A model generated the notes under the pieces. That model did not search any database. It was not told the DNA's origin and saw only the letters and a list, made by a program, of their open reading frames with translations. The position numbers and the translations under genes were made by a program. Positions 11,290 to 64,000 of a DNA stretch of 64,000 nucleotides are shown in pieces (within the stretch, counting starts at the first letter, position 1; every line of letters begins with the position of its first letter). The stretch comes from Endomicrobiia bacterium (GTDB lineage: Bacteria > Elusimicrobiota > Endomicrobiia > DTEH01), in contig JBCNUU010000004.1 in the NCBI GenBank assembly GCA_039630545.1, positions 77,207-141,206 of the forward strand, written 5' to 3'.

Positions 11290-11300
11290 ATATCCTCCAG

Positions 11301-25816: not shown

Positions 25817-25823
25817 TTAAGAA

Positions 25824-26432: not shown

Positions 26433-26434
26433 AT

Positions 26435-29004: not shown

Positions 29005-29007
29005 GTT

Positions 29008-29430: not shown

Positions 29431-29432
29431 TT

Positions 29433-31277: not shown

Positions 31278-31280
31278 TAA

Positions 31281-31739: not shown

Positions 31740-31759
31740 ATATCTACCCCTTTCTTTTT

Positions 31760-32299: not shown

Positions 32300-32321
32300 A
32301 AGTTACTCCTTTCATTATTAA

Positions 32322-33041: not shown

Positions 33042-33047
33042 ATTTAT

Positions 33048-35093: not shown

Positions 35094-35098
35094 GACAG

Positions 35099-35659: not shown

Positions 35660-35664
35660 GGTTA

Positions 35665-43099: not shown

Positions 43100-43720
43100 T
43101 TATTTAATTCTTTTTATTAAAACATTTTTTATATAAACAGGATTAAGAGGTTTATCTCTATGATCTCTTGGAACATTTACTATTTTTTCCACCACATCTA
43201 AACCCCTTACCACCTGACCAAATATAGTGTGTCTGTTATTAAGCCATGGAGTCGGCACTACTGTAATAAAAATCTGAGAACCATTAGTGTTAGGTCCACG
43301 ATTAGCCATAGCAACTCTGCCTGGTCTGTCAAACAAAAGCTGCGGATGGAACTCGTCTTCAAACTCATATCCAGGCCCACCTGTTCCATCTCCTTTGGGG
43401 CAGCCGGTTTGTGCCATAAAGTTAGGAATTACTCTATGAAATATAAGTCCATCATAGAACCTTTTTTTAACTTTCTGGTTAGTGTTAGGATCTAACCATT
43501 CTTTTTCACCTGACGCAAGTTCTACAAAATTTTTTACAGTTTTTGGCGCATATTTTTCATAAAGCTCAAAAACAATAACTCCATAATCAGTTATTATAGC
43601 AGCATAGTATCCTTTAGGTAATCCTTTAAAAATTTTTTTTTCTAAATTTTTTTGTTGAGAAAAAATAAAATTATTTAAAAATACCAAAATAGACATCCCT
43701 ATAAAAAAAGATTTTTTCAT
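43100..43720 (-). CDS. cyclophilin-type peptidyl-prolyl isomerase with N-terminal signal peptide
   Basis: [48 protein letters not shown] + hydrophobic N-terminus. Confidence 0.94.
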
Positions 43721-43843: not shown

Positions 43844-46800
43844 TTATCTTATTACTCCTATCTTTCTTATAGCAGTTATTACTCCCTTTGTAGATTTTAC
43901 TTTAATCTGTGCTATATATCCACCTTTTGAAACTTTCTGCCCTGCCTGGTTTGTACCATCCCATCCACCTTCTGGAACACGATTTGCTCCTTTCTTACCA
44001 CCTTCCTGTCCTGGCTGGAATGTCCATTCTCTAACTTTAAATCCTAAAAGATCATAAATAGTCAGTGTGACCTCTGCATCTTGATTTAATAGATAAACAA
44101 TATATGTCCTCCCTTCTTCTCCACCAAGACGAATATCTACCGGGTTCGGATAATTTGAAACTTGAGAGATCACTTCTTCTGGTAAACCTGTAGATACACC
44201 ATTTGAAATCTCAGACCAGTTAGAATAACTTCCTGCATAGTTCTTAGCTCTTACACGATAATAGTAGAAATGACCTTTTTCTCTGGGTTTATTATCAGGA
44301 GTATCAGAGTTTCCAACAACAAAAGATGTTCTACTTCCTGCAACAAACCTGATTGTTCTCCAGACAGGATTTGTATCTACTCTTTCTTGAATCTCATAAC
44401 CCATAATACCTGATTCTTCATCTGAAGCTGGAGACCATTCAATAGTATAAACTCCTTCTGTAATGTCTCTGCCTGATCTATCATAATCAGACACAGGTTT
44501 AGAAGGAGCTTTTGGAGGAGTCACATCTACTCTGTATAATATTAAGGATATCACAGGTCCAGCAGTATTGCCTTGGCCTATACCATGAACACGATAAAAT
44601 GTTCCTTGATTTGTAACTTTTGTATAAGCTGGATGATCCTGTGCAGGCGTGTCGTATTTTGCTCTCTGAGTAATTCTAAATGAATTCTGTGATTTTGTTT
44701 CATAATACATTATCTCACCACCAACATATATATCTGATTTTTCTGCTGGAAAACCATCTGTAGATTCCACAAACAAGTCAAATGGTGGCGTATCCAGTCG
44801 CGAAACTGATTTGGTTAACCTTGTAACTTTTGCTGCCTGTAATGAGAGATTGGTTATAGTAAACTTTGGCGCTCTCCTGGTAGATAACCATCCACCAGGA
44901 GCAAATGCTTCTGTTAGGTTATTTACATTTGCAACATTTCCTGCTCCAACTCTATAGTCTAACACCTCAGGAGTATGTTTCCATTGAGCATAAAGTTGAG
45001 TAGTTCTGTTTGTCCATCTTTCAGGTGTATAACCCCAATCTATAATACCGTCTCTGCTAAGATCTATCTCAGGAATACCATCACCATTAACATCAGGAAC
45101 CACTGAATCCGGCTTTCCATCGCAGTTAAAATCAACATCTAAAACTCCATCTCCTGTCATATCTATAGAAAGTTTCCCATCACCTACTAAATCTATGTCA
45201 TTTTTCCTTCCATCACCATCTAGGTCTTCTAAATCGTTTGTCCCATCTTCATCTAAATCCACAAAAACTTCACCTGCTTGAGTAACTCTATCCGGCATGG
45301 TATCACCATCTACATCCACTGCTGGATATCCATCTCCAAATGGATTTGCGTATACTTGTTTTTGTGCTAATACTACCCATTTAGGCATGACTCTTGGTGC
45401 ATATTCATCTAATATCAAAACAAGCGAGCTTCTTAATGGAAATCTATTAGTAATGTGAGATTCTATTGTAGAAGGAATAGTTTCTAGTGATTTAAATGAA
45501 GTTATTTCTACTCCAACATAATGATCTTTAGTTGAAGTACCTGCCAAATCTGTTTTTCCTATGTTCCCTGCTATAAATATTCTAACAGGTGAAGTAGAGA
45601 CATACAGACCATCTTTTGGCAAACTAATTCTTGCAGCACCGGCTGAAAAATCTACTGTTGGATGAGTTACAGAGGTTATAAACAAATCAAGCGCCGGAGA
45701 GAAGAAACCATCACCATTGTCTAGCCATACAGACATTCCGGATAGATCACCTTGCCCATATCCACCAATAGCTCCTGGTGTCTGAACAGTTCCTGTTTGT
45801 GTAACATAAATTTTCTTTATTTTTACATAGTTTCTATCTGTCTGAATTGTTAGCATAATAAATGGAACATTTTGAGTTCTCTGAGGAACCTGTACGGGGG
45901 CAACTGACTCAGCAGAAACTTTCAATGTCACAGGATTTATTCTTACAAGCGATGTCTCAAAAGGATAAATATCTTGTTTTATACTTATTCCTTGAATATC
46001 TTGTTCTATTTCCAGCTGAGATGATGCTTCATTTGGATATTTAATAGTTATTGCTTCTTTACCTACAAGCTTTACTCCAACAGCGTTCCCGGCAGAAGCG
46101 TTTTCTCCTATGTCATAAGCAATAAAATATGTTTGTGGTGTAGGAGAAATTAACTGTGGTTGAACTAATGTAATTTCTTTTTGTCTGTTGAGATCGTCAT
46201 TTAGATAATACATATCGCATTTTCTTACAATACTTCCAGATGAATGATATGAAGCATAACTTCCAAGATGAGCTCTTTTTGTGATATAAAGTGCTGGATA
46301 TTCTATACCGTTTACGGCTACTGTAGCAATTTTTGTATATTCAAATATTTCGTCGTTAACTTTTACCCATAACTGAGGATGGTTTTCCGGAAAACTTCCT
46401 AAAGGAGTAGTACTTGATTTTATAACCATAAAGAAAGGAGGTCTGGTATCAGAAGAAATCTCAACCACAAGTTCCGAATAAATTTCAGAAATTAAAGTGT
46501 CTGCTGAGTCAAGTTGTTCATTGAAGTTTGCATCTTTATAGATTTTAATATATCCAACATCTGCATTTTTACCATATGGTAAAGCAGGATCAGCAGAAGA
46601 ACCTGTTTTTTCTAATCTTATTCTTTCCCATATAGCTTGTGCAACATCTGTTCTCATCTTTATTCTTAAAACAGGAACATTTTTTTCTGCCTGATATGTC
46701 CCACCTAAATTTGCTATATCTTTTGCGACATCATAAACTCTAAGTATTACTTCAGAAGGTGCTTCATAGATAGTTGTTTCAGCAGTCCTTATCGGTTTCA

Positions 46801-49800: not shown

Positions 49801-52800
49801 TACCAGTGCGCGTAATTTTGAATCCATTAAGGTAAGCAGTATATTCTTTTGTTCTTATTTTTATTCTCAACATTCCGGCATTAGGTTGTCCTTGATATAC
49901 AAAAGTAGACCTTCTTGTCTCCACAGAAGCCGCGATGTCTTCTACTAAACAATACACCTTTGCTTCTTCTCTCTTTATAGCTGAAGTGTCTGTAAATATT
50001 CTGAAGTTATTTGCTGCTACACGTGCTACACCAACAGTAGTAAGATAGTTATGATTGTTAATTTCTAATCCGAGATATGTACCGTGCTGTGCAACTGTAG
50101 AGATTCTTACACATAAGAAATAATTCTTTGAAACATTTGAAATAAATTCACTCATCCCTGTAAAGTTCCAGGCATTAGATACTGGATCATATACACCAAC
50201 TTTCACAAGTGGATCTGGAGAAGTTCCACCAAGTACCGCTTCACCTTGGAATTTACCATCACCATTAGCATCATAATAAAGACCTATCCATACATCCTGT
50301 GCCAAGGCTGTTCCCTTTTTGTCAACTCTAAGTTGTGTCCAGGTAGCTGATTCTGCAACCTGCTGTGGTAGCACTCTTAAGTTTAATCTTAACATTGGAA
50401 CGGGTGCTGGTTTTTCATAGGTGTTACCATCGCCCTGGAAAAGTGCTGTTTTACCTTGATAAATTGTTCCTTCAAGTAATTCTTGTTTTTTAGTATAGCT
50501 ATCATCGCAAGTGGATTCAGAATTATCAGCATCACCATATGCAACAGGTGCGAGGTCTGCTGGCTCAACCACAATACCACAGGTAACAACATCATCATCA
50601 GAATGTACAGGAACTTCTCTTAATATATCTCCTGTATAACCATAAATTTTATCAGGATCTTCGTCTGGCAAATTAATTGTTGCGTAGTCAGTAACAAACA
50701 CTTTAAGTGTTTCCTGGATTTGATCAATAACTTGTAATCTATTATATACACCAGCATCTGTCTTTACAAAAGTATAGTAAGTTGTTAGACTTATAGCATC
50801 TTTTAATATAACCTTTTCTGGATTACCTGAGTGAGTAAACACGATTGTGCCTTCGTACCACTGCCCATTTATATAATCACCAGCTGCAACATTGCCGTAT
50901 CTATCTCTTGCTTTTACTGTTAAAAGACCAGGTTCATGGACTCTTAACGGATTAGCAATTGTAAACGGATGATGAATTGTAAAATACTCAATAGGTGCCG
51001 GTGTGATATAATGCGTTTGATACATAGGAATTAATGTTCTTCCTGAAGAAGTTCTTCCTGAAATTTTCATAGTATGCGAACCAACTATAGTATCAAAATA
51101 ATAGAAAGTTCCAGAATCACTACCAGCTGGTATTAATACTGGTAACAAATTACCACCACCTGTCATCAATGTCCATCCAGCACCATCTAGGTCTTGAGTT
51201 GGGTCAACAGAACCATATGCTTGTGGTGAATCAATTACTTCAACAGACAATATGATATTTTCTGTAGATACAGTTACATTTCCAAACTTATCTCTGATTT
51301 CTACCGTAATTCCTGTAAATAAAGGTTCTCCGTGTTTCTTTATAACCATCTTGCCACCTTTTGCAGAAACAGTAATTGTAGAAATGTCAGTTCCTGTACC
51401 ATCAAATTGTATTGTAGTTCCTGCAATAAGTCGTCTTGGAGGTGTTACAATAGCAGGATAGTGTGGTAAGTTAGGAAGCACCCTATAAGCTCTTCTACCC
51501 TGTGTCCATAAACCTGGATTTACTATAGTATCTGCAAATAAAGTATGAGTTGTATCGTAGACTCCATACCTTACAGTAGCAAGTGTATCAATTAAATAGA
51601 AAGATGTGGTTCTATCTCCTACTCTGAAGTACGCAATTGCTTCATCTACTGTCCAGCTTGAGATAGAAGGTAAAGCAAATTTTACACTTCCAGTTGAAGA
51701 AGAAACTATTTTTATTCTTCTTGGATTATCACCAGAAACATCTGCTTCAAGAACAGGTGCTATATTCCCATAGAAATCTTCTGTCGCAAGCATCATTACC
51801 TGAGAGGTTACACCTGCAGTTAAAGTTGGTATGTAATCAGGGTCAGGTGGAATACTATATTTACCATAAATACCTAACCTTCTTATTCTGTCAGGCATAA
51901 TGAGAACTGATTGTTGAGCAGAAGCCCATGGAGTTCCGTCTCCTTTTTTGCCTAACGGTGTTGCAATAACTATTGGATATGTATTACCTACAACACTATA
52001 GTTTTCAGATGCATTTGTATCTAAGTAGTAGAATTTTTTATAGTATTCATTTGTCTCAATAACAAAGGAGGTTATTGAAATTTCAAAAACAGGTGGAGTA
52101 CCATAGGCTGGACCTCCTGTTGTTTTGCTTGAAAGTGAAAAAGAATAAGAATCATTAAATCTGGAAGTTTCTCTTATAGAAGACAACAACACAACAACTG
52201 GATAAGTGGTCCTTACAGGGTTGTTCCATCTATCTTGCAGTTCTACTTCCAACTCTAAACTATTTGGTCCAGGACCTATAGATGTGTATTCTTTCGGTGA
52301 ACCGGCTGTTAGTTTTCTTTGTGGATTATCAAATGCAGCTTTTGTGATTTCGTCAGGTTTTACTAACAAATCAAAAGAAGCCCACCTTGCTGGTTCATTA
52401 CCAAATGCTTGAATTTGTATTGTCCATTTTCCGGTTTGCGGTCTTCCGTCTTCGTTTTCTGGAATAGATGACATTTCATCATAGTATATTATTGCTACAG
52501 ATGTGGATTTAATGGAGTTGTAAAACCATATAACATAATCAGGTCCTAATGTGTTTTCTGCACCCGGAGAAGATCTGAAATCCCATTGACGCTGAGGTTG
52601 TTGTTGTTTTGCAAGTGAGTTTGTAACAAGTTGGGCCCAGGTATCACCTTGATATGTTGGATTGTCAAACTCATCTCTTCTCTGAATGACAATATACGGA
52701 GTTTCATTTCCTGCAACAAGTTCTAAAGGAGGATTTAGTGCTACTAGCCTATATGGTGTTCCTCCTATTGTGGTAATTTTTCTTGTAACTCCAACTATTC

Positions 52801-55800
52801 CTCCTGTGGAAAATTTAACCTTTGCAGAGTCTCCAAGTTTATGAGAACAATAATAGTAAAGTGGTGGATTTAGTCCAACAGCACCAGATGAATCTGTAAC
52901 AGCATAAACCACAGGCTCAGGTGGTTGAGAATCTGAAGCAGGTGAGGTGTAAGAGACAACTCCTGTTGAACCAACAACATCTATAACTTCAATGTTGACC
53001 GGTACACCACTAGATGGTACAATATTCGCATAAGCATCAGAAAGATAAGCAACAATCTGGAGTTTGCCCCAATCAGACCTGGTGCCTGCAGGAACTTTAA
53101 TCTCATAAGGATAAAATTCAGTCCCTGCTGTTGCAGTAGTTTCTACAACAAAGAAACTAGCAGGTGGTCCTGGCTGAACAAAAATGTAGGTATAAAGTGG
53201 TCCGTGTTCTCCTTCTTCACCCTGAATATTTGGATTAGGATCGCAAGGACGTTCTGAAGATATTAAAGTATTTAATGGGTTTGTCTGATATGTCTTTATC
53301 CATCTCTGTCCTGCTTTCTTTAATACAATTCCGCTAAACAGTTTTTCACCGCGATCGGCTAAAGTCCAGTCATATTCAGAAGGAAGTTCTGGTGTCTGTG
53401 GTGATGGGAAGTACTCTCCATCAAATTTTACTCTATAACCACCTAAAGCATAGGTTGTCCAGTTTATTCCTGTAGAAACTAAATTATCATATTGATCTCT
53501 TAACTGAACTTTTGCTGAAAAACCAGTTCCAGCAACAACTGTTGATGGATATTCTACTATATGCATATGGTGAACTACTGCCGGCCATATTCTTATGAAA
53601 GAAGAAATTCCAGATTGATAGTGTGGTGGCTGACCATCAATATCGACTGCTGTTAAAGTCCATGAGGAGGTTGCATGTAGAGGAACTAAGGTAAAATTAT
53701 TCGCACCATCAATTAGTGTTTTAGCTGCTGGTTCTGAATCCTTTGGATCCCATGTGTTAATCGCTACAGTTGGCATTGGCCAACCAGTTCTTACACGGTT
53801 GTTGTAGTTGTCTACAAGGTAAACCGTTGCAACAAAACTCTGGCCTGCTACATAATCTTGAATTCCTCCTGTTTTACCATATGGAGAACCTTGTATGAAT
53901 GTCTCATCAGGAACCAACACCAACAACCTTGTAGGAGTTGAGGGATTAACTGTAAATGTTGGCGAAATATCTGATTGATATAAAGGTTCTAAACCATCTA
54001 CATCTTCTACAACAAGATAATGCCAAGTGGCTGCTGTTCTTAAAACTATTGGGAATAATCCCTGTCCAGAACTTAAGGGTTCTGTTGAAGGTTCTATATC
54101 AAATGGATCTGCTGTCCTTATAGCTACTTGTGGCTGTATGGAAACATCCGTAACTAAGTTGTAATATGAATCTACTAACCTAACAGTTGCATACCACAAC
54201 TCTCCTGCTGTCATAGATAATGGAGAACCTATCTTACCATACGGTGAAATATTATACTTCCCAGGAACAGGTGTTTCACCAGGTAGTATAAGCTGAAGTT
54301 TTACTGCATTCGCAGGTTTTACAGTAAATGTCGTCACAGCAAGATCTAAAGGATTTGCAGGGTATTCTTGATATAGTGGTGGGACACCATCTACATCTCG
54401 CACTCTTAAATAATGCGTAGAGGCTGTCACAAGTGTAAAGTCAAAATATTGTTTACCAGTGACAACATCCACATCTCGTCTTGGAGGTTCTGTATCATAA
54501 TTATCCAGTGGTGAATCTGCCTGTAGCGTAACGGAAACACCTGGCACCGGATTAAAATATGCATCAGTAATTGCTGTTGTAACACTAAACTGCTGTCCTG
54601 CAACTAATAGCTGCGGTTGCCCAACTTTTCCTCTTGGATGACCACCAACAAGCGTCTGTCCAGGAAGTACCAACAAAAGTTTTGTAGGTGTTCCAGGACC
54701 TACAAAAATGTTTTGACTTCTCCCAACTGATAAAGTTGGTTCAACACCATCAATGTCTTCAACATAGACAACCTTATCTGCTGTAGCAGATGATGCTGAA
54801 ACTAAAGTTACAGGTATAACTGCTGAAGAGTATACCACAAACTGTAAGTTATTAGAAGGAGAGTACAAATCATTAGTGTTAAGCTGTACAGTAGCACCTG
54901 CTGGTAAAATTGAAGTTAAGTTCCAGTAGTCATCAGTAATTCTTACTGTGACATTGAAAGAAACTCCAGCTGTCTGGTTAGAAGGTATACCTTGTTTTCC
55001 TCCATTTGTCGAACCAGGAACATACGGTGGTCTTCCTGGATCATAAACTTCTCCAGGAACACATACATGAAGTTTCTTTGGAACATTTGGCCGGACAGGA
55101 ATTAAAGATGAAACATGCGACTGAAGCGATGGAGTGTTAGGATCGTTGTCTATTGCTGTGATGGTTTGAGGTTTTGCAGTTCTAAAATCAACATTACACA
55201 CTGCAACTCCTCCAATCATAGAAATATTTCCTGGATCTGTATCGTAGTCATCTGAAGTTGTAACTGTAATTGTCTGAGAAACTGTTGAAACAAAATTATA
55301 CCAGTTATCCACAGCGTAAATTGTTACCTGGAAAGGAACACCTGCAGTCTGACTGCTTACAGAAATACTGCTTCTTCCTTCGGGTGGAATGTTTTTACCA
55401 TTTATTTGTTGCTGAGGTGGAACAACAACAAGAAGTTTTGCTGGAACATTAGGTATTACCGGAACTTCAGAAGATATTCCCATTGTATACCCACCACCAG
55501 ATGCAGTAATTGTCACAGAAGATGCTGTAACAAGTGTTAAACTAAATAACCTCTGTCCATTAACTAAAGTTAAAGCTGTGGGATGAGTATCATATGGATC
55601 TGAAGTCCACACTGACACAAGTGGCATAGGACCTTCTTTTACTCTATTCCAGTAAGCATCACAAAGATTTACTCTTATTGTAAACCCAACACCTGCTGTT
55701 TGGGTTTTTATAGTTCCTGTTTTCCCTAAAGAAGAACCAGGAGATTCTATCTCGTCAGGCACAATAACCTGAAGTTTCTGCGGGTTATTTGGTTTCACAT

Positions 55801-58800
55801 AAACTCTTGCATATCCTTTAGCTAATGTAGGTGAAGCGTCTATGTCTTCAGCTAATATCGTCCAGGTAGAATGCGCTGTAAGAAGTGTAACAGTAAATGT
55901 TGAAATTCCACCTACAAGAGAATTTTCAGAAGGTTCAACAACCCAGCCTGGATAAGGTTGGCCAATATCTGATGCATACTGAGAAATTGAAGGAGTTAAC
56001 TTTACGAGTGAAACCTCATCGGTCAACAGGTTATAGAAAGAATCAACAGCACGAACTGTTACTGTAAACGGTACACCAGCGATTTGAATCTGTGGTGTGC
56101 CTGTCTTACCACCTGTTCCACCAATTCTGTTTTGTTCATCTACATCGTATGGTGGCTTACCTGGAAGATAACTTTCCCCTGGCAGTGTGATATGAAGTTG
56201 TTTTCCCCATGTGGATACATTCACTGTAAACACAGATGAACGATAAGAATTAAGTAAAGGAGCGTCTTGATCTTCAGCTAAAAATGTATGTGTGCCTGCT
56301 GTTACTAAACTAAATGTAAATGTTTTAGAACCGGCTTCTAAACCATAAAGCTGTGCCGACACAAATGGATCTGTAGGTGTAACTTTTATAGCAGAAACAT
56401 CATTGTCTTGTCTGTTGTTGTAGTTATCTACTGCATGAACTAAAATACTGCGTGGTATTCCTGCAGTCCAACCCGCGGGTACTCCTGAAATACCATAAGG
56501 CAATGTTGCTGAAGGATGTGAGCTTGTCTCTCCCCATTCAGGTTGTTCTCCAGGCAAATAAATTTTAAGAGATGTTGCTGTGTTAGGATTCACTTTGATG
56601 TTTGAGGTTCTATAGTTTACAAGCGTTGGCAATATAGAATTTACACTTCTTATATACCAACCAGTATCATTTCTTGAAACCAATGTCCAGGATAATACAT
56701 ACTCACCATTTATTAACTGAACTTGTTTTTGGTCTGGATAATCCCAGGGATCGTTTGACTCTAAGGTAACAATTGGCTGTGCTGAAGTTTTATTCCACCA
56801 TCTATCAACCGCACGTATAGTAATGTTAAATGGTTGACCGGCTGTCTGAGCAGAAGGTGTGCCAGAAATTCCACCCATAGTAACTGTTTCAGAACTAACA
56901 TACGGAGGTTTTCCAGGTTGTGCTGTCACACCAGGTGGCAAGATTAGCAATCTAAATGGTGTATCAGGATTTATAGATATACCACCAGTGTAATCGGATA
57001 AGTATCCGGAAGCAGTAGCTGTTGCTACTGTGACCTTTGCAGCAGCAAATCTTACTGTAAAGGTAGTTGTTCCATTTATTAGTTCCTTCGTGCGACTTAT
57101 TCTGTATACCTCATAGTCTATATCCCAGTCATCAACTAAAACGGTTACTGTTGGAGAGGCGTTAGTAAGATTATAATAAGCATCACATGCGCGAACTGTT
57201 AAATCAAAATATGTACCTGCTGTTTGAGGATATGGTGTTCCTATTCTTCCACGACCTACAGTATAACCAGGAGTTGGCACTTCACCAGGTGCATAAATTG
57301 CCAGCCTTGTTGGCACATTGGGTTTAATAAATACAGCTGAAGAAACTCCTGGAGAAACACCTGATGCTTGAGCGGTAATTGTCCAACTAGAAGATGTTAC
57401 CATCGCAACATTTGCAAAGTTAGTATAACCAAGATTTAAAGCTTGTGCTGGAGGATGTGTGTCATATGGATCCTGAGTTAAAATTGACACTAACTGTCCA
57501 GAATACACAAGATTATAATAATTATCCACTGCAAATACTGCGACATTAAAGTAAATGGTTGTACCAGCTCTAATGATAGTTCCACCAGAAACAGGCACAC
57601 CTGCAGTTTGTACAATTGGTTCTCCTTCTTTACCTGAAGTTCCGTCATATGGAGGTTTGCCTGGAATGTATTTCTGTCCAGGAAGTATCACATGTAATTT
57701 TGTAAATGAAGAAGAGGTTACGGTAAATGTAGAAGAAATATTTGTCCAGTATAAACCTCCTGTGTCAGTTGCGATTATTATATGGTACTTAAATGGTTCC
57801 CAGTAAGGAGGATTTGTATCTATTCTTTCTTGCGATGCAGTGTAGATTACTTTGCTTATTATAGCTTCACCATTAACTGTGGACTGAACAGGTTCTGTAT
57901 CATATTCATCATAAGGAGTAATAAGTTTTACATTAGCGCCAGCTGTTGGGACTAAATTCCAAAGTATGTCTGTTATTCTTACAGCAACATTAAAAGGCTG
58001 TCCAGCTACCTGAGTATGTGGAGTTCCTTCCTTACCTTTGGTAGTGTTGGGTTTAGAAACTTCACCTGGTAAAAGACATTGTAGTTTAACAGGCGGACCT
58101 GGATTTACCCAGATCAAAGATGAATCCCGTCTTCCATAATAAGGAGGATTCCCATCAGTATCTTCTGCTGTAAGCCAGTGCCATGTAGAAGCTGTAACAA
58201 GTGTAACTTTGTATATCGTTGTGCCATTAAGCAATGGTTGATATGCTGGATCCCATCCTAAACCAGTTTCTGAACCTACACCATCGTTTGGATCAGAAGA
58301 TGTAAGTGTAACTCCTGGCTGTGCTGTAGGCACAATGTTGTTAAATCTGTCCACACAATTTACAACTACATCAAAACTAACACCTGCGGTCTGTTGCATA
58401 ACAATACCAGTTTTCCCAGACGGTGAGCCGGGTTCATGTTTCTCATTAGGAACAAGAATCAAAAGTTGAACAGCATTTGCTTCAGGTGTAACTTGAATAC
58501 CACCTACAAATGTAGCGGCGTACTGTTGTGGATCAGCATTGTGAATTGCATATATTGTTAACGATTCTTGCAATCCTTGATATAACGTTGCTCTTCTTAA
58601 GTTTATCGGGAATGACTTCATACCATTCTCAAGACCAAGCGGTGTGGGATCTAGATCATACGGATCTGAAGTCCAAACTTTTACATACGGATTATCAGCT
58701 GGGTTTATATTCCAATATAAATCACAAGCTAATACTGTAACCCAATATGTCACACCTGCGGTAAGATTCTGTGGAGTGCCGTCTTTTCCGCCAACTTGTG

Positions 58801-61800
58801 GAAAGTACGGTGGTTTACCAGGATTATGTGTTTGACCTGGTACAAGCAACATCAAATACTGTGCAGGTTGTGGTGTGACAGGTACTGTTGTTTGACCGTT
58901 TGCAAGTTTTTCATATGGTGGTACACCTTCGGTTACATCCTGTGCAGTAATTAGTGTGTTTCTATTTGCAGGATCAAGTGAACCACGGTTTGCTGTGATA
59001 AGTACTAAAGTAAATGTTGCGATACTTAAGTATTCATCTGTTGTAATTAAAGTTTCTGTTGAAGGTTCACTGTCATACGAATCGTCAGTTATTATCTTGA
59101 CTACACGGGATGATTCAGCTATGTTCCACCTTGAGTCTGTCGCGTGAACTCTTATTGTAAATGAGGAACCTGCAACTTGTACCTGTGGAACACCCTGTCT
59201 TCCAGTTGGCGAACCTGGTAATGGCTGTTCACCAGGTGCTAACACTAAAAGTTTTATAGGTTTTCCAGGAAGTACTTTTATGTTCGCTGAAGTATCCGGC
59301 TGCAAATATGGATTTGCAGCTGTTGGTGCAGTTGAAGCAGTTATTTTCCATCCTTCAGTTGTTGCTGTCGCTAAAGATGTATATATTGTAACAGTTCCCA
59401 TATTTGTTGCAGCATCTAGTGGTGGTTCATAATAAGGATCTGTAGCAGAAAGTCTTACAGTGGTGTTTACAACAGGCACTGGATTCCAGTATTTGTCAAC
59501 AACGTTTACAACTACTGGATAAAGGTCACCCGCATACCATGGCGTCGGGGTACCATCTTTACCAGAAGTGTACCATCTACCAGGTACTGCTGTCTCTCCA
59601 GGAACAAGTATTTGAAGTTTTGTTGCAGAACCATAATTTGATTGTATCGGAGGTGTAATATATCTTGTAAGTTCGTTACCAGCCGCTGTAGAAACAATAA
59701 TTTTGTACGATTCACCTACCCCTCGTCTAAATTCTATCTCAAATGTTGCAAAACCGTTAGTTGTTGATTTTGTTGCAGGGTGGATATCATACGGATCTTC
59801 AGTTGTGACACTAAGCAATGCTGAAGTTGAAGTTACTAAATTCCATCTGCTATCAGTTATAAATACTGTTAAAGTAAATGGTACACCAGCCTGTTGTGGG
59901 ACAACAGTTCCTGATTTTCCTGTAGGTGAACCTGGATTATAAGTTTCATTAGGTACTAATGCTAAAAGTTTTACTGGTGGCCCAGGATTCACTATTACCT
60001 TAGGCGATACATATTCTATCATACCAGAAGCAGAAACTGTCAGTCTCCAACCTTCAGTAGTTGCTGTAACTAAGTTTCTGTCAACAAAAATTCTTCCAGC
60101 AGTAATACCTAATGAATGAGGGTCAGGTGTGTCATATGGATCTTCAGTTGTAAGCGTAGCTGTAATGTTGGTATTAGTTACATTCCAGTAGTCATCACAT
60201 ACTTGGACTATTATAGTTCTTGTGGAATCAACAACCCAAGCCTCAGGTGTACCGCTTTTTCCTTCAGGCGAACCTGGAATCCAGGTTTCACCTGGTAATA
60301 TCATCTGCATCCTTTTAGCTACATTTGGTAATACAGTAATTTTAGGTGAAACTGCATCAGGATATGCAGGCTCAACACCATCAACATCACGAATTGTAAT
60401 TGTCCAACTTGAAGGTGTAACAGCCCAACCTGAAGTTCTAAACTGAATAACAAAGTTTGTTGCGCCTGCTATAAGCTGTTTACTTGAAGGATATACTGCA
60501 TAGGGGTCAAACTCGCCAACTTTTACAGGTTGCACCCATGGCATTGGTACACCTGAATAAATTCTGTTATAAAATTTATCAACAAGGAAAACATCTATTG
60601 TAAAGTTATTTCCAGCTATCTGATCTGATGGTATTCCTTGTTTACCATATGGTGCTGGATTAACACCATTTTCCCATTTACCAGGTTCATAAGTTTCACC
60701 AGGAACTATCACATGAAGTTTCAATTCTGATAACACATCTGTCTTCGGCTGAACTGTTACTACAGAAGAAGTAGAAGTATAAAGATATGGTGCATCAGTG
60801 TCAACTGCATAAAGATATTGCTGCCCTGCAGTAACAAGGGTCACAAAGAATATTGTTGCACCGTTTACTAATTGTTGAGTTGATGGATGTATATCCCACT
60901 TATCAGAGGTGTCTATTCTTATCCAGGATGTATCATTGACTCTATTGTAGTAAAGGTCTGTAGCATAAACTGTACAACCAAAAGATACACCGGCTGTTTG
61001 TACTATAGGTGTACCTTGTTTGCCTGTTGGTGAACCTGAAACTATTGTTTCTCCGGGAAGTAAAACAAGCAACCTTGCTGGATTATTTGGCAAAACAGTA
61101 AATACTGAAGAAATATTTGAATCCATCAAAGGTGGTGTGAGATCGTAAACTGTAACAGTTTGAGTCCCAGCGGTTACGGGAATAATTGTGAAAACAGTTG
61201 TGCCTTGTTGCAACACCAAGTTTGTAGGTTCAACGTCAAACTGGTCTGAAGTTGTAAGTCTCACAGTTGAAGATAGTTCTTCTACAGATTGCCAGTTATA
61301 ATATGCATCACAAGCGTAAATCTTAACATTATATAATGCACCGGCTGTGGCGTCTTGTGGAACTCCACTTCTTCCTAAAGGAGCAAGCGGAGATATATCT
61401 TCTCCCTGTAGTACAACTAAAAGTTTATTTGTAGCTGCAGGATTTATATTTATAACCGAAGAATTGTAAGAAAGATAATCCGGATGCGTAGCGTTTATAC
61501 TCCAGGAACCTGTTGTGTAAAATACAAGATAGTAATTTGATGTACCTTGTGTAAGTGTTACAAACTTAGGTGTTTTACCATCACCAGTGTAATCCTGGAA
61601 ACCAGCACAGTCAAGGTTGATGTTTGAAACACTATCCGTTCTTCTGTTCCAGTAATAGTCTGTGATATAAACTCTTGCTAACACATTTTCACCTGCTAAA
61701 GCAGAAGATACAGTTCCTTCCTTCCCACCTGTGGAATCGGTATATGGTGGTTTACCCGCACGTGCAGTTTCGCCTGGTAGCAACACTTGAATTCTATCAT

Positions 61801-64000
61801 TTGTAGTTGATAGATTAGGCTGTACCGGGATGCCAGCCGAAGTATATGTCTGCATACTTCCTGCTGAATATACTGAAATACTCCATCCGGTATTATTCCA
61901 GTTAAGTGGATCCGTTGCTGAAACGAATGTTACTCTAAATGTCGTAGCACCTGCTATAAGTGTAAGTGTGGAAAGTTCAACATCGTAAGGATCAGTTGTT
62001 GTCAACCAACAAGCTACAAATGTTGAGGTTCTGTTATAATAATCATCTGTAGCATATACAGTCACACTAAATGGTACTCCTGCAGTTTGTGTAACTGGTG
62101 TACCTTCTTTTCCATAAGGTGCAATGTTGTACTTACCAGGTTTGTACATTTCTCCAGGTAGTACTGCCAAAAGCTTCTTTGGAACATTTGCAGTTACTGT
62201 AACAACCGGTACTGTGTAACTTGCAAGTGGATCAGCGTCCACATCTTCAACAGTGACATAATGAGTCGCTGCAGTAACAAAAGTGTGTTGTATTACTGCT
62301 TGTCCGTTAATTAAAGAAGTTAAAGCAGGTGTTGAATTGTAAACATCAGAATCTGTAACTCTTACTAAAGCTACTGCGTTAGGTTGTAAGTTCCAGTATT
62401 GATCACAACCGTATACTGTAATGTTAAAAGGAACACCTGCAGTAAATATTTGAGGTGTTCCTGTCTTACCATTAGCTGAACCAGGCATATATGTTTCACC
62501 AGGAAGCACTGCAAGAAGCTTAACAGCTGCCGCTGCCTGACAGGTTGAAACTAAGCTTGTATATGGTTGATAATAAATTCCAATACCATCAATATCTGAC
62601 GCCCTCACCGTAAACGTTCCTGCTTTAACCAATGTAATATTAAATACTTTTCTTCCGTCAATAAGTTGTTCTGATGGTGGTTCTATGTCATATGGATCCG
62701 AAGTTTCAACTTTAACTACAGGATTTCCTTCAGGCGGTGAGATACCAAACAAGTTGTCGTCAATACAGTTCCAGTAATAATCACAAGCATATACTGTTAC
62801 AGAAAACGTCAAACCTGCAGTTACAGGTTGCGGCATTCCTGATTTACCACCAGTGGTTGTGTTATATGGAGGTTTCCCCCATACTGCAACTTCACCAGGT
62901 AGTGTAACAAGAAGTTTTCTTTCAGCACCTGTTTCGTCTCTTCTTGGTTTAACTTTTACACCTTCCGTTATATAAGTCTCGTATATATTAGGTGAAATAT
63001 CGTCAGCTGTGAGTTTCCATCCAGTAGTTGTTGCAGTAATTAATTTTGGATGTTCTGGTAAAGTAGCATCTGTATTGTTTGTTGGAATTGTACAATCAAT
63101 ATATTCACCATATGTATAACTATCATATGGATCTTCTGTTGTTAGCCTTACGGTAATATCCTGTGGTGCAGCTGTAGGATTAAAGTAATCATCCACTAAC
63201 TGGATTTTTGGTTGAAAAGCATAACCAGCTTCTTGCCATGAGGATGTTCCATACTTGCCAGTTGAAGAACCAGGTTCCTCTGTTTCACCTGGTAGTATAA
63301 CAAATATTTTTGAAGGAACATTAGCGTTAACATTAAACACTTCGCCTAACTGGTCTAACAAACCTAACTCACCATCAGTTACTTTTATCCTTCGTGGTTT
63401 AGCTGTCTTTACTGTTACAGAAAATGTAGCTGTGTTGACTAAATAGGCATAAGTTGGAATAACTACAGCATATGGATCAACCTCAGTGGCTGATTTCATT
63501 ACATACACCCAAATAGTTGTCCCTGTTGTTGTTATATTCCAGTAAGTATCACATGCATTAACTGTTACAGTAAACGCAACACCTGCAGTTTGAGTTTGTG
63601 TAACAGCAGTATTTTTCCCATAAGGTGGTTGAGCATTAGGTGAACCGACCCAGTTACCTGCAACATTTTGTTGGTTAGGGACCAAAACTTGAAGTTGTGA
63701 TGCAAACCTTGGTGATACATAGAAACTCTTTGATGTCGTAGAGATATACAGTGGCGGTATACCGTCAATATCTTCAACAATAATCGTATGTGTTCCCGCA
63801 CGAACTATGTTAAGCATGTTTGTAAACACATACTGTCCTGCAACAAGTGATACAGTTGTTGGTTCAACATCGTAAGGATCGTTAGGTGTGTGAAGCTTAA
63901 CTATGGGTTCATCCAATGCAACCCTGTTCCACCAGTTGTCAGTAAGATTAACCGTTACCGTGAAAGGTGTCCCTGCAGTAAGAGGTGAAATACTTCCAGT
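43844..64000 (-). CDS. giant repetitive surface/secreted protein (at least 6,718 aa; N-terminus lies beyond the window)
   Basis: One open frame from 64000 to the stop at 43844. The frame stays open upstream of the TTG at 63916 (TGSISPLTAGTPFTVTVNLTDNWWNRVAL, itself part of a repeat). Beta-rich tandem domains, FN3-like domains and a YPNP...WDG C-terminal tail. Confidence 0.95.
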   Translation of the reverse strand, partial: TGSISPLTAGTPFTVTVNLTDNWWNRVALDEPIVKLHTPNDPYDVEPTTVSLVAGQYVFTNMLNIVRAGTHTIIVEDIDGIPPLYISTTSKSFYVSPRFASQLQVLVPNQQNVAGNWVGSPNAQPPYGKNTAVTQTQTAGVAFTVTVNACDTYWNITTTGTTIWVYVMKSATEVDPYAVVIPTYAYLVNTATFSVTVKTAKPRRIKVTDGELGLLDQLGEVFNVNANVPSKIFVILPGETEEPGSSTGKYGTSSWQEAGYAFQPKIQLVDDYFNPTAAPQDITVRLTTEDPYDSYTYGEYIDCTIPTNNTDATLPEHPKLITATTTGWKLTADDISPNIYETYITEGVKVKPRRDETGAERKLLVTLPGEVAVWGKPPYNTTTGGKSGMPQPVTAGLTFSVTVYACDYYWNCIDDNLFGISPPEGNPVVKVETSDPYDIEPPSEQLIDGRKVFNITLVKAGTFTVRASDIDGIGIYYQPYTSLVSTCQAAAAVKLLAVLPGETYMPGSANGKTGTPQIFTAGVPFNITVYGCDQYWNLQPNAVALVRVTDSDVYNSTPALTSLINGQAVIQHTFVTAATHYVTVEDVDADPLASYTVPVVTVTANVPKKLLAVLPGEMYKPGKYNIAPYGKEGTPVTQTAGVPFSVTVYATDDYYNRTSTFVACWLTTTDPYDVELSTLTLIAGATTFRVTFVSATDPLNWNNTGWSISVYSAGSMQTYTSAGIPVQPNLSTTNDRIQVLLPGETARAGKPPYTDSTGGKEGTVSSALAGENVLARVYITDYYWNRRTDSVSNINLDCAGFQDYTGDGKTPKFVTLTQGTSNYYLVFYTTGSWSINATHPDYLSYNSSVININPAATNKLLVVLQGEDISPLAPLGRSGVPQDATAGALYNVKIYACDAYYNWQSVEELSSTVRLTTSDQFDVEPTNLVLQQGTTVFTIIPVTAGTQTVTVYDLTPPLMDSNISSVFTVLPNNPARLLVLLPGETIVSGSPTGKQGTPIVQTAGVSFGCTVYATDLYYNRVNDTSWIRIDTSDKWDIHPSTQQLVNGATIFFVTLVTAGQQYLYAVDTDAPYLYTSTSSVVTVQPKTDVLSELKLHVIVPGETYEPGKWENGVNPAPYGKQGIPSDQIAGNNFTIDVFLVDKFYNRIYSGVPMPWVQPVKVGEFDPYAVYPSSKQLIAGATNFVIQFRTSGWAVTPSSWTITIRDVDGVEPAYPDAVSPKITVLPNVAKRMQMILPGETWIPGSPEGKSGTPEAWVVDSTRTIIVQVCDDYWNVTNTNITATLTTEDPYDTPDPHSLGITAGRIFVDRNLVTATTEGWRLTVSASGMIEYVSPKVIVNPGPPVKLLALVPNETYNPGSPTGKSGTVVPQQAGVPFTLTVFITDSRWNLVTSTSALLSVTTEDPYDIHPATKSTTNGFATFEIEFRRGVGESYKIIVSTAAGNELTRYITPPIQSNYGSATKLQILVPGETAVPGRWYTSGKDGTPTPWYAGDLYPVVVNVVDKYWNPVPVVNTTVRLSATDPYYEPPLDAATNMGTVTIYTSLATATTEGWKITASTAPTAANPYLQPDTSANIKVLPGKPIKLLVLAPGEQPLPGSPTGRQGVPQVQVAGSSFTIRVHATDSRWNIAESSRVVKIITDDSYDSEPSTETLITTDEYLSIATFTLVLITANRGSLDPANRNTLITAQDVTEGVPPYEKLANGQTTVPVTPQPAQYLMLLVPGQTHNPGKPPYFPQVGGKDGTPQNLTAGVTYWVTVLACDLYWNINPADNPYVKVWTSDPYDLDPTPLGLENGMKSFPINLRRATLYQGLQESLTIYAIHNADPQQYAATFVGGIQVTPEANAVQLLILVPNEKHEPGSPSGKTGIVMQQTAGVSFDVVVNCVDRFNNIVPTAQPGVTLTSSDPNDGVGSETGLGWDPAYQPLLNGTTIYKVTLVTASTWHWLTAEDTDGNPPYYGRRDSSLIWVNPGPPVKLQCLLPGEVSKPNTTKGKEGTPHTQVAGQPFNVAVRITDILWNLVPTAGANVKLITPYDEYDTEPVQSTVNGEAIISKVIYTASQERIDTNPPYWEPFKYHIIIATDTGGLYWTNISSTFTVTSSSFTKLHVILPGQKYIPGKPPYDGTSGKEGEPIVQTAGVPVSGGTIIRAGTTIYFNVAVFAVDNYYNLVYSGQLVSILTQDPYDTHPPAQALNLGYTNFANVAMVTSSSWTITAQASGVSPGVSSAVFIKPNVPTRLAIYAPGEVPTPGYTVGRGRIGTPYPQTAGTYFDLTVRACDAYYNLTNASPTVTVLVDDWDIDYEVYRISRTKELINGTTTFTVRFAAAKVTVATATASGYLSDYTGGISINPDTPFRLLILPPGVTAQPGKPPYVSSETVTMGGISGTPSAQTAGQPFNITIRAVDRWWNKTSAQPIVTLESNDPWDYPDQKQVQLINGEYVLSWTLVSRNDTGWYIRSVNSILPTLVNYRTSNIKVNPNTATSLKIYLPGEQPEWGETSSHPSATLPYGISGVPAGWTAGIPRSILVHAVDNYNNRQDNDVSAIKVTPTDPFVSAQLYGLEAGSKTFTFSLVTAGTHTFLAEDQDAPLLNSYRSSVFTVNVSTWGKQLHITLPGESYLPGKPPYDVDEQNRIGGTGGKTGTPQIQIAGVPFTVTVRAVDSFYNLLTDEVSLVKLTPSISQYASDIGQPYPGWVVEPSENSLVGGISTFTVTLLTAHSTWTILAEDIDASPTLAKGYARVYVKPNNPQKLQVIVPDEIESPGSSLGKTGTIKTQTAGVGFTIRVNLCDAYWNRVKEGPMPLVSVWTSDPYDTHPTALTLVNGQRLFSLTLVTASSVTITASGGGYTMGISSEVPVIPNVPAKLLVVVPPQQQINGKNIPPEGRSSISVSSQTAGVPFQVTIYAVDNWYNFVSTVSQTITVTTSDDYDTDPGNISMIGGVAVCNVDFRTAKPQTITAIDNDPNTPSLQSHVSSLIPVRPNVPKKLHVCVPGEVYDPGRPPYVPGSTNGGKQGIPSNQTAGVSFNVTVRITDDYWNLTSILPAGATVQLNTNDLYSPSNNLQFVVYSSAVIPVTLVSASSATADKVVYVEDIDGVEPTLSVGRSQNIFVGPGTPTKLLLVLPGQTLVGGHPRGKVGQPQLLVAGQQFSVTTAITDAYFNPVPGVSVTLQADSPLDNYDTEPPRRDVDVVTGKQYFDFTLVTASTHYLRVRDVDGVPPLYQEYPANPLDLAVTTFTVKPANAVKLQLILPGETPVPGKYNISPYGKIGSPLSMTAGELWYATVRLVDSYYNLVTDVSIQPQVAIRTADPFDIEPSTEPLSSGQGLFPIVLRTAATWHYLVVEDVDGLEPLYQSDISPTFTVNPSTPTRLLVLVPDETFIQGSPYGKTGGIQDYVAGQSFVATVYLVDNYNNRVRTGWPMPTVAINTWDPKDSEPAAKTLIDGANNFTLVPLHATSSWTLTAVDIDGQPPHYQSGISSFIRIWPAVVHHMHIVEYPSTVVAGTGFSAKVQLRDQYDNLVSTGINWTTYALGGYRVKFDGEYFPSPQTPELPSEYDWTLADRGEKLFSGIVLKKAGQRWIKTYQTNPLNTLISSERPCDPNPNIQGEEGEHGPLYTYIFVQPGPPASFFVVETTATAGTEFYPYEIKVPAGTRSDWGKLQIVAYLSDAYANIVPSSGVPVNIEVIDVVGSTGVVSYTSPASDSQPPEPVVYAVTDSSGAVGLNPPLYYYCSHKLGDSAKVKFSTGGIVGVTRKITTIGGTPYRLVALNPPLELVAGNETPYIVIQRRDEFDNPTYQGDTWAQLVTNSLAKQQQPQRQWDFRSSPGAENTLGPDYVIWFYNSIKSTSVAIIYYDEMSSIPENEDGRPQTGKWTIQIQAFGNEPARWASFDLLVKPDEITKAAFDNPQRKLTAGSPKEYTSIGPGPNSLELEVELQDRWNNPVRTTYPVVVLLSSIRETSRFNDSYSFSLSSKTTGGPAYGTPPVFEISITSFVIETNEYYKKFYYLDTNASENYSVVGNTYPIVIATPLGKKGDGTPWASAQQSVLIMPDRIRRLGIYGKYSIPPDPDYIPTLTAGVTSQVMMLATEDFYGNIAPVLEADVSGDNPRRIKIVSSSTGSVKFALPSISSWTVDEAIAYFRVGDRTTSFYLIDTLATVRYGVYDTTHTLFADTIVNPGLWTQGRRAYRVLPNLPHYPAIVTPPRRLIAGTTIQFDGTGTDISTITVSAKGGKMVIKKHGEPLFTGITVEIRDKFGNVTVSTENIILSVEVIDSPQAYGSVDPTQDLDGAGWTLMTGGGNLLPVLIPAGSDSGTFYYFDTIVGSHTMKISGRTSSGRTLIPMYQTHYITPAPIEYFTIHHPFTIANPLRVHEPGLLTVKARDRYGNVAAGDYINGQWYEGTIVFTHSGNPEKVILKDAISLTTYYTFVKTDAGVYNRLQVIDQIQETLKVFVTDYATINLPDEDPDKIYGYTGDILREVPVHSDDDVVTCGIVVEPADLAPVAYGDADNSESTCDDSYTKKQELLEGTIYQGKTALFQGDGNTYEKPAPVPMLRLNLRVLPQQVAESATWTQLRVDKKGTALAQDVWIGLYYDANGDGKFQGEAVLGGTSPDPLVKVGVYDPVSNAWNFTGMSEFISNVSKNYFLCVRISTVAQHGTYLGLEINNHNYLTTVGVARVAANNFRIFTDTSAIKREEAKVYCLVEDIAASVETRRSTFVYQGQPNAGMLRIKIRTKEYTAYLNGFKITRTGSGTDADIKGVALFIDDNGTGDPKQGDGLFQPALDTRVSDWIAFSTRTAVVYLKQVAEITPSTVTYFVSYKVSDSAYIGKTHGAAIVDSADIRLAEGVVLPIPGYYSSLVTVLATSDEMTLIDYNKNSPNNFSVPGAATQGDKDVVVARLTLQTMQRTAIWTGLKLDRYNPNKVNQPEDIENIKVWFDTNNNGLFDKSSDTLVSPADKKYTFPVTKIAVDVSTTSDVIYVEDVSKLVLSPIIDFSPFPETPGRVVLSDGSDNLEVVYFSGVDRQLNALTGCLRGREGTQPRFHPKGSKVSGQAILWILGNFYELGPYRVGQEIVSEYPKDYFITVDINYLAKVHEASQLGISIRSTDYFKVVEPDYVSNRFGIIGPKPQGKSESGIGSIMEYPDRVTFKLINISTEVVAYLQQGKTNVPIASLIAYTDESEAWWQQINIHGTGSATDNNLLTDEIKYIKIWYDLNNNGSLNPDIDVCIATATFGNVGKPLMSQVVFPVAPKIITTPRAQLEKISQRYFITVDIEENAHPEQTFGIALTTWTDITVSLPNYLDKSSSTIPFETILRTIIPSPRMVTVDAQPLWLNKEGEIIKETIYLNSNIDNTDTFIPLNISAINYKLKEDGYAILNNEIIKYSSVSQEGLSDVQRGVEGSYAVSHASGSLVGFEVVQGQKNVPLLKLVMYCSGFQVQLPSIKFTRTQPSPLNGDDADISYIKVWKDNGDGELNRDPNTGFISPDVEVFLGQAKFGVPPDPASAATVMLNDPLYNRGYALITTTPTIFWVTADISASAKFTHPQISNLNEVFGVAIPLPTNINLAPKEAGHWVSTATSLGNPAFPIVSPVSVIVPTLDTLIVEAEGILPPGVYQNQKNVGVLRLNFKSNKNSVTVKRIKLDMLGTAVDGDIALVKIWKDLNNNGIFDLEDTTRTATGEYPGLLSFGTDRFSDKTVNIELKTPLVIDDSPLGTNIFISFDIAEFARLFAKFSASVEDETYITVEVPDDVSFVVKPIRTAETTIYEAPSEVILRVYDVAKDIANLGGTYQAEKNVPVLRIKMRTDVAQAIWERIRLEKTGSSADPALPYGKNADVGYIKIYKDANFNEQLDSADTLISEIYSELVVEISSDTRPPFFMVIKSSTTPLGSFPENHPQLWVKVNDEIFEYTKIATVAVNGIEYPALYITKRAHLGSYASYHSSGSIVRKCDMYYLNDDLNRQKEITLVQPQLISPTPQTYFIAYDIGENASAGNAVGVKLVGKEAITIKYPNEASSQLEIEQDIQGISIKQDIYPFETSLVRINPVTLKVSAESVAPVQVPQRTQNVPFIMLTIQTDRNYVKIKKIYVTQTGTVQTPGAIGGYGQGDLSGMSVWLDNGDGFFSPALDLFITSVTHPTVDFSAGAARISLPKDGLYVSTSPVRIFIAGNIGKTDLAGTSTKDHYVGVEITSFKSLETIPSTIESHITNRFPLRSSLVLILDEYAPRVMPKWVVLAQKQVYANPFGDGYPAVDVDGDTMPDRVTQAGEVFVDLDEDGTNDLEDLDGDGRKNDIDLVGDGKLSIDMTGDGVLDVDFNCDGKPDSVVPDVNGDGIPEIDLSRDGIIDWGYTPERWTNRTTQLYAQWKHTPEVLDYRVGAGNVANVNNLTEAFAPGGWLSTRRAPKFTITNLSLQAAKVTRLTKSVSRLDTPPFDLFVESTDGFPAEKSDIYVGGEIMYYETKSQNSFRITQRAKYDTPAQDHPAYTKVTNQGTFYRVHGIGQGNTAGPVISLILYRVDVTPPKAPSKPVSDYDRSGRDITEGVYTIEWSPASDEESGIMGYEIQERVDTNPVWRTIRFVAGSRTSFVVGNSDTPDNKPREKGHFYYYRVRAKNYAGSYSNWSEISNGVSTGLPEEVISQVSNYPNPVDIRLGGEEGRTYIVYLLNQDAEVTLTIYDLLGFKVREWTFQPGQEGGKKGANRVPEGGWDGTNQAGQKVSKGGYIAQIKVKSTKGVITAIRKIGVIR
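45030..45319 (-). repeat. cluster of 8 DxDGDG-type acidic motifs (putative Ca2+-binding)
   Basis: DVDGDT, DLDEDG, DLDGDG, DLVGDG, DMTGDG, DFNCDG, DVNGDG, DLSRDG within ~95 aa. Confidence 0.8.
53573..64000 (-). repeat. protein-level tandem repeat array: 27 complete + 1 partial ~115-140-aa units
   Basis: Hand-aligned consensus KLLVLLPGETxxPG(x)nGKxGTPxxQTAGVxFxVTVxAxDxYWN...TxDPYDxEP...LxxG...FxVTLVTA...DxDG...SxxVxVxP. Units are diverged at the DNA level. Confidence 0.9.

Follow-up and report, generated by a model that had tools for sequence, protein, structure and literature searches.

The analysed DNA, a window of 64 kb, belongs to a genome (G000) of 1.6 Mb with 29 % GC and 95.5 % completeness. 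Its right-hand part holds a single stop-free reverse-strand frame that is open at the right edge, and this edge is the end of contig C34, so the giant gene is cut there. The frame is colinear with aa 12,640–19,358 of the giant protein of a relative (G004), at 80 % identity, and is probably, from sequence comparison, the C-terminal third of a chain of ~18,000 residues built of immunoglobulin (Ig)-like domains. The 5′ end was recovered on contig C77 with the head of another orthologue (G002) as the reference, the head of G004 being too diverged; the last 801 bases of C77 have 65 % identity to the first 270 aa of the G002 protein. The same HEAT-repeat gene stands 5′ of the giant gene on C77 and in G002, G004, G039, G214, G096 and G108. 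No contig of G000 carries the middle repeats, and ~11,200 aa between the C77 and C34 pieces, as estimated from G002, would be unassembled. The gene accounts for ~3.4 % of the genome.

Metagenome contigs from three runs (hot-spring metagenomes of one study, from at most two samples and possibly the source DNA itself) cover all 30 bins of the giant gene with no joints and no indels; one contig spans 17 kb and another extends 5.9 kb beyond the window. Among 25 single-site variants in the gene, 19 are synonymous. Comparison with two same-genus orthologues gave dN values of 0.10–0.17 and dS values of 1.1–1.5; in each of the four regions dS exceeds dN about tenfold. A chimeric or spurious frame was ruled out by the joint-free coverage, the low dN relative to dS and the synonymous variants. 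Close relatives that carry names are Endomicrobia/Elusimicrobiota MAGs.

The giant gene (window 44001–64000) has 35–41 % GC with little GC skew, and the rest (1–43800) has 25–35 % GC. The cyclophilin-type prolyl isomerase encoded beside it is a possible folding helper for the proline-rich giant. Elsewhere in the window, positions 5341–12524 encode Rnf-type proteins (RnfC, RnfD, ferredoxin-like) and a 2-oxoacid:ferredoxin oxidoreductase, which together may supply ion-motive force. Kdo, lipid A and Lpt genes, rapZ, yvcK and a mannose-type PTS run that encloses a GH57 gene make positions 23056–36642 an ordinary diderm housekeeping block.

Domain composition and complete orthologues

Table 1. Features of the giant gene and its neighbours (window coordinates unless a contig is named)
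Feature	Position	Strand	Basis or remark
C-terminal 6,718 aa of the giant gene	43844..64000	(-)	frame analysis
28 'LPGE' (A) repeats, ~125 aa each, first one partial	53576..64000	(-)	repeats 5-32 in an array of 32
~7 diverged units of ~140 aa, D-x-[YFW]-[GDN]-N motif	50621..53575	(-)	6 by pattern, 7th by eye
8 beta-sandwich modules (DxNxNG or D modules), ~170 aa, W-x-D-x-x-x-N-G loop	45410..50473	(-)	two split by inserts
Inserted all-beta domain of ~75 aa, 4 copies	48896-49153, 47801-48019, 46220-46471, 44606-44827	(-)	motif RG/A..G/DT..H
Acidic DxDGDG cluster, 5 DxD/NxDG-type motifs, aa 6225-6320	45041..45328	(-)	pattern
Two FN3-type domains, first carrying insert copy 4	44186..45028	(-)	predicted fold
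T9SS-type C-terminal sorting domain (CTD), FlgD_ig-like	43847..44182	(-)	predicted fold
Cyclophilin-type prolyl isomerase gene	43100..43720	(-)	directly downstream of giant; also in G002, not in G004
5′ end of the giant gene, 267 aa, signal-peptide-like start	G000:C77:40694-41494	(+)	3′ of HEAT-repeat gene
PorV-like barrel with TPRs (PorV-TPR), predicted CTD partner	G000:C12:54769-56376		complex model

The LPGE repeats share 33 % pairwise identity on average; their Ig fold is of the invasin/Big-1 type, to which a PGE..PG..GK.G.P loop is added. A two-repeat model (pLDDT 97.5, pTM 0.89) matched FdeC (Z 11.3, rmsd 8.1, 193 aligned), the GH2 domain 7nit (Z 11.0, rmsd 2.1, 99 aligned) and invasin (Z 10.1) in a structure search. 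The adjoining ~140-aa units matched no Pfam family and are probably Ig-like. In the beta-sandwich modules the W-x-D-x-x-x-N-G loop is a candidate Ca2+ loop. The only likeness of these modules was a weak one to BNR_assoc_N (1 of 67 members at E 0.006; Atlas row at 13 % of members), and the module and insert profiles had no match in PDB sequences and none over the Pfam cut-offs; the nearest Atlas clusters to the inserted domain are phage hypothetical proteins. Ca2+ may stiffen the filament, as the first-pass annotation of the window had proposed; the number of motifs in the DxDGDG cluster ranges from 0 to 7 across 32 orthologues. The last 974 aa were predicted with a confident fold (pLDDT 89.6), and in a structure search of this tail, which hardly covered its residues 1–461, the second FN3 domain matched titin Fn3 8oq9 (Z 13.4, rmsd 1.9, 96 aligned). 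No enzyme, toxin, LPxTG, SLH or autotransporter domain was found in the window part with Pfam (E≤0.1) or NCBIfam (E≤0.001), which gave weak FlgD_ig, GEVED, I42 and PorU-tail matches only, and hydropathy revealed no hydrophobic segment there.

Nine complete orthologues, with frames of 13,791–19,358 aa, share one architecture: a variable head of ~400–1,800 aa, 'B' repeats (59–88 per protein; whole-protein Big_13/Big_3/Big_7 matches), the LPGE array and a conserved base of 2,818–3,398 aa that ends in a T9SS-like CTD. Seven genomes of six families have an LPGE array of 32 repeats; in five other genomes the number is 37, 27, 26, 9 and 9, so a fixed number of 32 does not hold across the phylum. LPGE repeat i best matches repeat i of other genomes in 19–32 of 32 cases; because its repeats are position-orthologous, the array is old and frozen. 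A super-repeat within it was looked for and none was found. The N-terminal B-repeat array contains an old 21-domain block duplication (lag z 8.3 and 6.5), seen at aa 917–11974 of the G004 giant and aa 428–10343 of that of G039. The G002 array lacks a block of 10 repeats.

A hydrophobic N-terminal segment was detected by hydropathy in the C77 piece and in G002, G004, G230, G101 and G096; the N-termini of G039, G214 and G108 are below the cut-off yet signal-like, and the peak in G083 is at residue 194. No membrane helix was found beyond the N-terminus, with at most one N-terminal hydrophobic peak in the nine complete proteins. Enzyme families (SecA DEAD, glycoside hydrolase, peptidase) were absent by Pfam from the parts scanned, namely three proteins in full or pieced with the window and the first 716–2,078 aa of six more. 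The G002 giant has a mass of 2.0 MDa and ~128 domains. An Ig-like domain is 3.5–4 nm long, and from this domain number the giant would measure ~0.5 micrometre if fully extended.

A first-pass annotation of the window had described a single giant frame without internal stops and open at the right edge, with at least 27 LPGE repeats, about seven invasin/Big-like repeats, eight DxNxNG-loop domains, a DxDGDG cluster, two FN3-like domains, a sorting-like tail and no enzyme, toxin, LPxTG, SLH or autotransporter domain. All of this was borne out, with the counts given in Table 1; the four inserted domains had been missed, as had the invasin-like Ig nature of the LPGE repeats themselves. Its picture of a secreted, non-catalytic, extended filament of Ig domains agrees with the signal-peptide-like start now located on C77, with the Ig and FN3 folds and with the CTD. 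The chimera that it had considered was not seen in the covering contigs, homologues were found in Elusimicrobiota, and no full-length match to a characterised adhesin family emerged. It had rightly called the gene giant (>20 kb) and had underestimated the length of the filament.

Distribution in Elusimicrobiota and linkage to motor genes

A search of 301 genomes of the phylum with the tail of the giant gave at least 80 genomes with a match at E≤1e-15. Orthologues were called at E≤1e-50, with the addition of G066 on four colinear hits, and 11 weaker matches were set aside as paralogues. Among the matches listed, orthologues are present in 69 of the 301 genomes, spread over most families of the phylum, and in none of the 89 genomes of family f4 or the 88 of family f20 (177 genomes, small-genome families), which from their size and abundance we infer to be the gut families Endomicrobiaceae and Elusimicrobiaceae. 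The main FliF-FliG-TPR fusion (E≤1e-62) was found in 80 of 301 genomes; 64 genomes have both genes, five have the giant without the fusion and 16 the fusion without the giant (draft genomes), all among the matches listed. On the same basis the two genes are linked in 29 of the 64 genomes (13 families), on one strand and with the giant 2.1–9.1 kb upstream, and unlinked in 35, in counts that include kin and hence genomes that are not independent. The main fusion is absent from f4 and f20 save for one weak match each, among the matches listed, and the two to three genomes of these families that were tested retain SprA-like proteins and CTD proteins, the latter of up to 2,490 aa. This indicates that the presence of the rotor goes with that of the giant rather than with export as such.

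The gene order giant, PorV-TPR, FliF-FliG, coiled coil was observed in 18 of 19 genomes (18 picked as linked), and in 12 of the 19 MotA-MotB also fall inside this 20-kb stretch. In an unselected set, PorV-TPR was just downstream of the giant at three of four loci outside the genus. In G039 the giant is followed by a small CTD protein, the PorV-TPR barrel, a FliF_C-FliG_M-FliG_C-TPR fusion and coiled coils. When the range outside the phylum was considered, nine of ten named loci were from Elusimicrobiota/Endomicrobia and the tenth was a weak FN3 match. The LPGE profile matched 8,967 clusters, many in the generic Ig part only, and a protein search covering 1,706–4,870 aa returned four named sequences, three 'hypothetical' and one 'fibronectin type III domain'. 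In two long-contig genomes (G284:C1:28355 and G247:C4:257784) the giant tail lies in frames of ~1,000–1,100 aa, as split genes or frameshifts.

In structure searches the giant CTD matched the CTDs of PorU (Z 11.5, rmsd 2.7, 97 aligned) and PorZ (Z 11.2, rmsd 2.3, 93 aligned). A PorV-type carrier is encoded in G000 (profile match to PorV 6h3i_F, E 4e-11), and a complex model of the window CTD with the PorV-TPR protein scored 0.89, against 0.00 for the best of three controls, with contacts agreeing at ≥98 % between runs and a partner pLDDT of ≥89. The score mark, only roughly applicable with the alignments used, was reached by 116 of 157 solved and two of 215 mismatched pairs. In the model, the invariant CTD residues D44–G47, G87–Y89, K107 and G109 form the interface, with contacts on the barrel and not on the TPRs, and the giant CTD is thereby predicted to dock on this outer-membrane barrel. 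PorV-CTD complexes have already been solved, so passing this mark may show likeness only. Approximately 10 PorV-like paralogues and ~17 proteins ending in a similar CTD are encoded in G000. Several of the CTD genes adjoin a PorV-like barrel gene of their own (G000:C77:3-2915, C12:176139-178118, C6:14028-15734, C67:12128-17227, C1:33689-34405 and C1:116338-118566), which suggests that this T9SS-like system outside the Bacteroidota pairs each cargo with its own carrier. A 1,742-aa protein of G000, which matches TIGR04189 in three stretches (best E 1e-12, well short of the cut-off), appears to be a distant SprA homologue. GldM and Peptidase_C25 (PorU sortase) were matched in none of five genomes, and control genomes gave no match either.

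The linked genes carry YscJ_FliF_C, FliG_M, FliG_C, MotA_ExbB, MotB_plug, OmpA and FlbD domains, with FlbD, MotA, MotB_plug plus OmpA and FliG_M/C above the Pfam cut-offs. An FlbD-like ORF precedes MotA in four of five cases inspected, one confirmed by Pfam. The set is complete in G000 but split, with the giant on C34/C77 and the small CTD protein, PorV-TPR, the fusion and two coiled coils on C12; the MotA-MotB pair, intact-looking and with the MotB aspartate present, is on C34, ~107 kb from the giant. Long coiled-coil proteins (800–2,100 aa, proline-rich N-termini) are conserved behind the fusion (L021:271-8851, G056:C1:27163-35000, L105:4306-11566) and matched no Pfam family except a terminal TPR.

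With positive controls, the type III export gate FlhA was found in six of 301 genomes, not including G000, and the FliM/N switch (FliMN_C) in none of five. Four of the six FlhA genomes are without the main giant and the main fusion, among the matches listed, and in G101 a flagellar FlhA occurs together with both. Chemoreceptors were present in two of five genomes tested and absent from G000, G004 and G083. A c-di-GMP-I riboswitch lies upstream of the giant's unit in all three non-genus genomes tested (G039, G108 and G214); G010 and G214 have one ahead of the barrel gene, and the G000 and G004 loci showed none. A crude pattern search identified five GGDEF-motif ORFs in G000.

Comparison with known systems

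The following comparisons use the available parts of the cited sources. SprB, the gliding adhesin of Flavobacterium johnsoniae (6,497 aa, carrier SprF; PMC12635249; 10.1101/2024.01.29.577165), is likewise a giant repeat protein with a T9SS CTD and a dedicated carrier barrel. The giant is ~3 times longer, however, its carrier is PorV-like with TPRs and its linked motor is FliF-FliG/MotAB; GldM was not found in five genomes here, with a silent control. On our reading of the same two sources SprB is moved by an ion-driven rotary motor, and the giant is proposed to be moved likewise. Pfam detected no SprB-family repeats in the window, G002, G039 or aa 1–13,536 of G004. The grappling hook protein GhpA of Aureispira (5,898 aa, 52 Ig repeats, heptamer; 10.1101/2024.01.29.577165; PMC12635249) resembles the giant in having a signal peptide, a head at the distal end, a long stem of Ig domains and a T9SS sorting domain, with a barrel gene downstream. 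In contrast, the Foldseek likeness is generic only (TM 0.07–0.2), cysteines are few in the giant (0.15–0.7 %), and GhpA is described, in the text available, with a barrel and an OmpA-like anchor and no rotor genes, whereas the giant is linked to rotor genes.

The linked genes carry the same domains as the flagellar motor core (FliF, FliG, MotA5B2, FlbD/SwrD). Unlike in the flagellum, FliF and FliG are fused, FlhA is not found in 295 of 301 genomes nor FliM/N in five of five, and the candidate filament is not a flagellin-type polymer but a single polypeptide that carries a Sec signal and ends in a T9SS-type tail. The Big-1 domains of invasin, intimin and FdeC have the same fold as the LPGE repeats, which differ in their extra conserved loop; the inverse-autotransporter barrel of invasin and intimin is absent by Pfam from the giant heads scanned, and the export signal of the giant is a different one. 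Very large genes in small genomes are also known from Omnitrophota, in a source that places Elusimicrobiota among the phyla with genes of ≥10,000 aa (10.1101/2023.11.21.568195, available part). The Omnitrophota giants are reported there to contain SecA DEAD and enzyme domains and to be rich in membrane helices; no such feature was found in the parts of the giant scanned here.

Genes motAB, flbD and fliG have been reported without flagella in free-living Elusimicrobiota, their role being called unclear, and no giant protein is mentioned alongside them in the available text (10.1101/2022.07.08.499144). Huge Elusimicrobiota proteins have been noted as well, and the available parts of these sources do not describe the present family (10.1101/2023.11.21.568195; PMC11573180). 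Apart from the remark on orphan motAB, flbD and fliG, no description of a giant–PorV–rotor cluster was found in the literature, most subscription journals and bioRxiv supplements aside.

A candidate surface machine and its alternatives

The giant is a real phylum-wide surface protein and is not a member of any tested family. It is probably the output element of an undescribed rotor-stator machine. The first-pass annotation had proposed an adhesin, a host or prey attachment device or a scaffold; the surface filament stands, and what it missed is the main context, a phylum-wide orthologue heading a PorV-rotor-stator cluster. There is about an even chance that the giant is the surface filament of a flagellum-free rotary motility machine driven by FliF-FliG and MotAB. 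Motility is favoured because the rotor tracks the giant, the stator is of the wall-anchored flagellar type, and four of the six FlhA genomes are without both genes.

For such a machine, the N-terminal signal peptide seen in the sequence would direct Sec export, and the chain would then pass the SprA-like protein, for which a distant homologue is at hand. The CTD, uncleaved in keeping with the lack of a PorU sortase match in five genomes (controls silent), would stay on the PorV-TPR barrel to which it is predicted to bind, placing the conserved base next to the cell and the variable head distally, up to ~0.5 micrometre out. In the periplasm the TPR tail of the barrel may couple to the FliF-like ring of FliF-FliG-TPR, gene order being what points to this step. 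The MotA/MotB stators would turn the ring by ion-motive force and, by analogy with SprB, rotate or drag the filament to give surface movement. Expression would be controlled by c-di-GMP riboswitches in the several relatives in which these were found, and not detectably in this genus.

Several observations count against motility. All isolates of the phylum, presumably from gut lineages, are non-motile according to the available part of PMC11257099. The cluster is split in this genus and the two genes are unlinked in 35 of 64 genomes, with the giant or the fusion alone in a further 5 and 16, among the matches listed. Chemoreceptors are lacking in G000, G004 and G083, there is no riboswitch at the G000 and G004 loci, and G101 has FlhA together with giant and fusion. 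Success of the CTD-barrel model may reflect likeness to solved complexes, and the barrel has ~10 PorV-like paralogues in G000. A broader claim is held more tentatively, at somewhat less than even chances: that Elusimicrobiota move by a one-gene flagellum or gliding filament, consisting of a single ~18,000-residue chain, a minimal T9SS-like export, a PorV-like clamp and a ring of fused FliF-FliG turned by MotAB stators. Such a machine would be ancestral to the phylum, with two losses in gut lineages.

Unlikely, although the best-surviving alternative, is that the motor is a dedicated export or assembly engine. Like GldLM in the T9SS, it would drive the 2-MDa chain out through the SprA-like pore, and the filament would be a static adhesin or a grappling hook with which to hold on to surfaces, partners or prey. 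The co-loss of giant and rotor fits this equally, and it agrees with the absence of chemoreceptors from G000 and with the parallel to GhpA, as described in the available text, in variable head, Ig stem, CTD and barrel gene behind; with no GldM or PorU match in five genomes (controls silent), another energiser may be needed. However, SprA-like proteins and CTD proteins of up to 2,490 aa persist in rotor-less genomes, so the rotor is dispensable for ordinary export, and a MotB-type stator with plug and OmpA domains, plus FlbD, points to torque against the wall.

It is more doubtful still that the giant is a static adhesin or surface scaffold whose link to motor genes reflects shared c-di-GMP regulation without a physical machine. 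The predicted CTD-binding barrel stays in the rotor operon where the giant has moved away, the base is conserved over 2,800–3,400 aa and the repeats are position-orthologous across families (19–32 of 32), in contrast to adhesins that shuffle fast. In favour of this reading, G214 has one riboswitch ahead of the giant's unit and another ahead of the barrel gene, the cluster is split in 35 of 64 genomes (among the matches listed) and in this genus, and all folds of the giant are generic Ig/FN3. Least probable is a mechanosensing antenna, in which the rotor-stator would read load, as flagellar stators do in sensing surfaces, and feed c-di-GMP signalling instead of movement: the riboswitches in relatives, the GGDEF-motif ORFs in G000 (crude pattern), the missing FliM/N switch (five genomes) and the long cytoplasmic-looking coiled-coil partners are compatible with it, but no Pfam signalling domain is present on the fusion or coiled coils, and a gene of this share of the genome is costly for a sensor.

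If the motility reading is true, the machine would be a new class of bacterial motility organelle uniting flagellar and type IX parts, in which the torque module of a flagellum does without type III export and moves a filament made of one chain. This bears on the modularity of the flagellar motor and on T9SS-like export outside Bacteroidota. The giant is a candidate output for the orphan motAB, flbD and fliG genes of flagellum-less Elusimicrobiota, magnetotactic ones included (10.1101/2022.07.08.499144, available part), and a function class is offered for the unannotated huge proteins of the phylum (PMC11573180, available part).

Further rotor-like genes were observed. At G000:C2:16523-20239 a second FliF-FliG-like gene lies ahead of MotA and a pair of MotB genes; of this pair, the first is without an N-terminal helix and the second has Asn at the usual Asp site. 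A paralogous FliF-FliG gene is closely preceded by a second CTD protein of ~1,700–2,350 aa at G016:C38, G153:C1, G014:C81 and G057:C1, and likewise at G033:C29, G011:C21 and G009:C35, so a module of large CTD protein plus rotor recurs.
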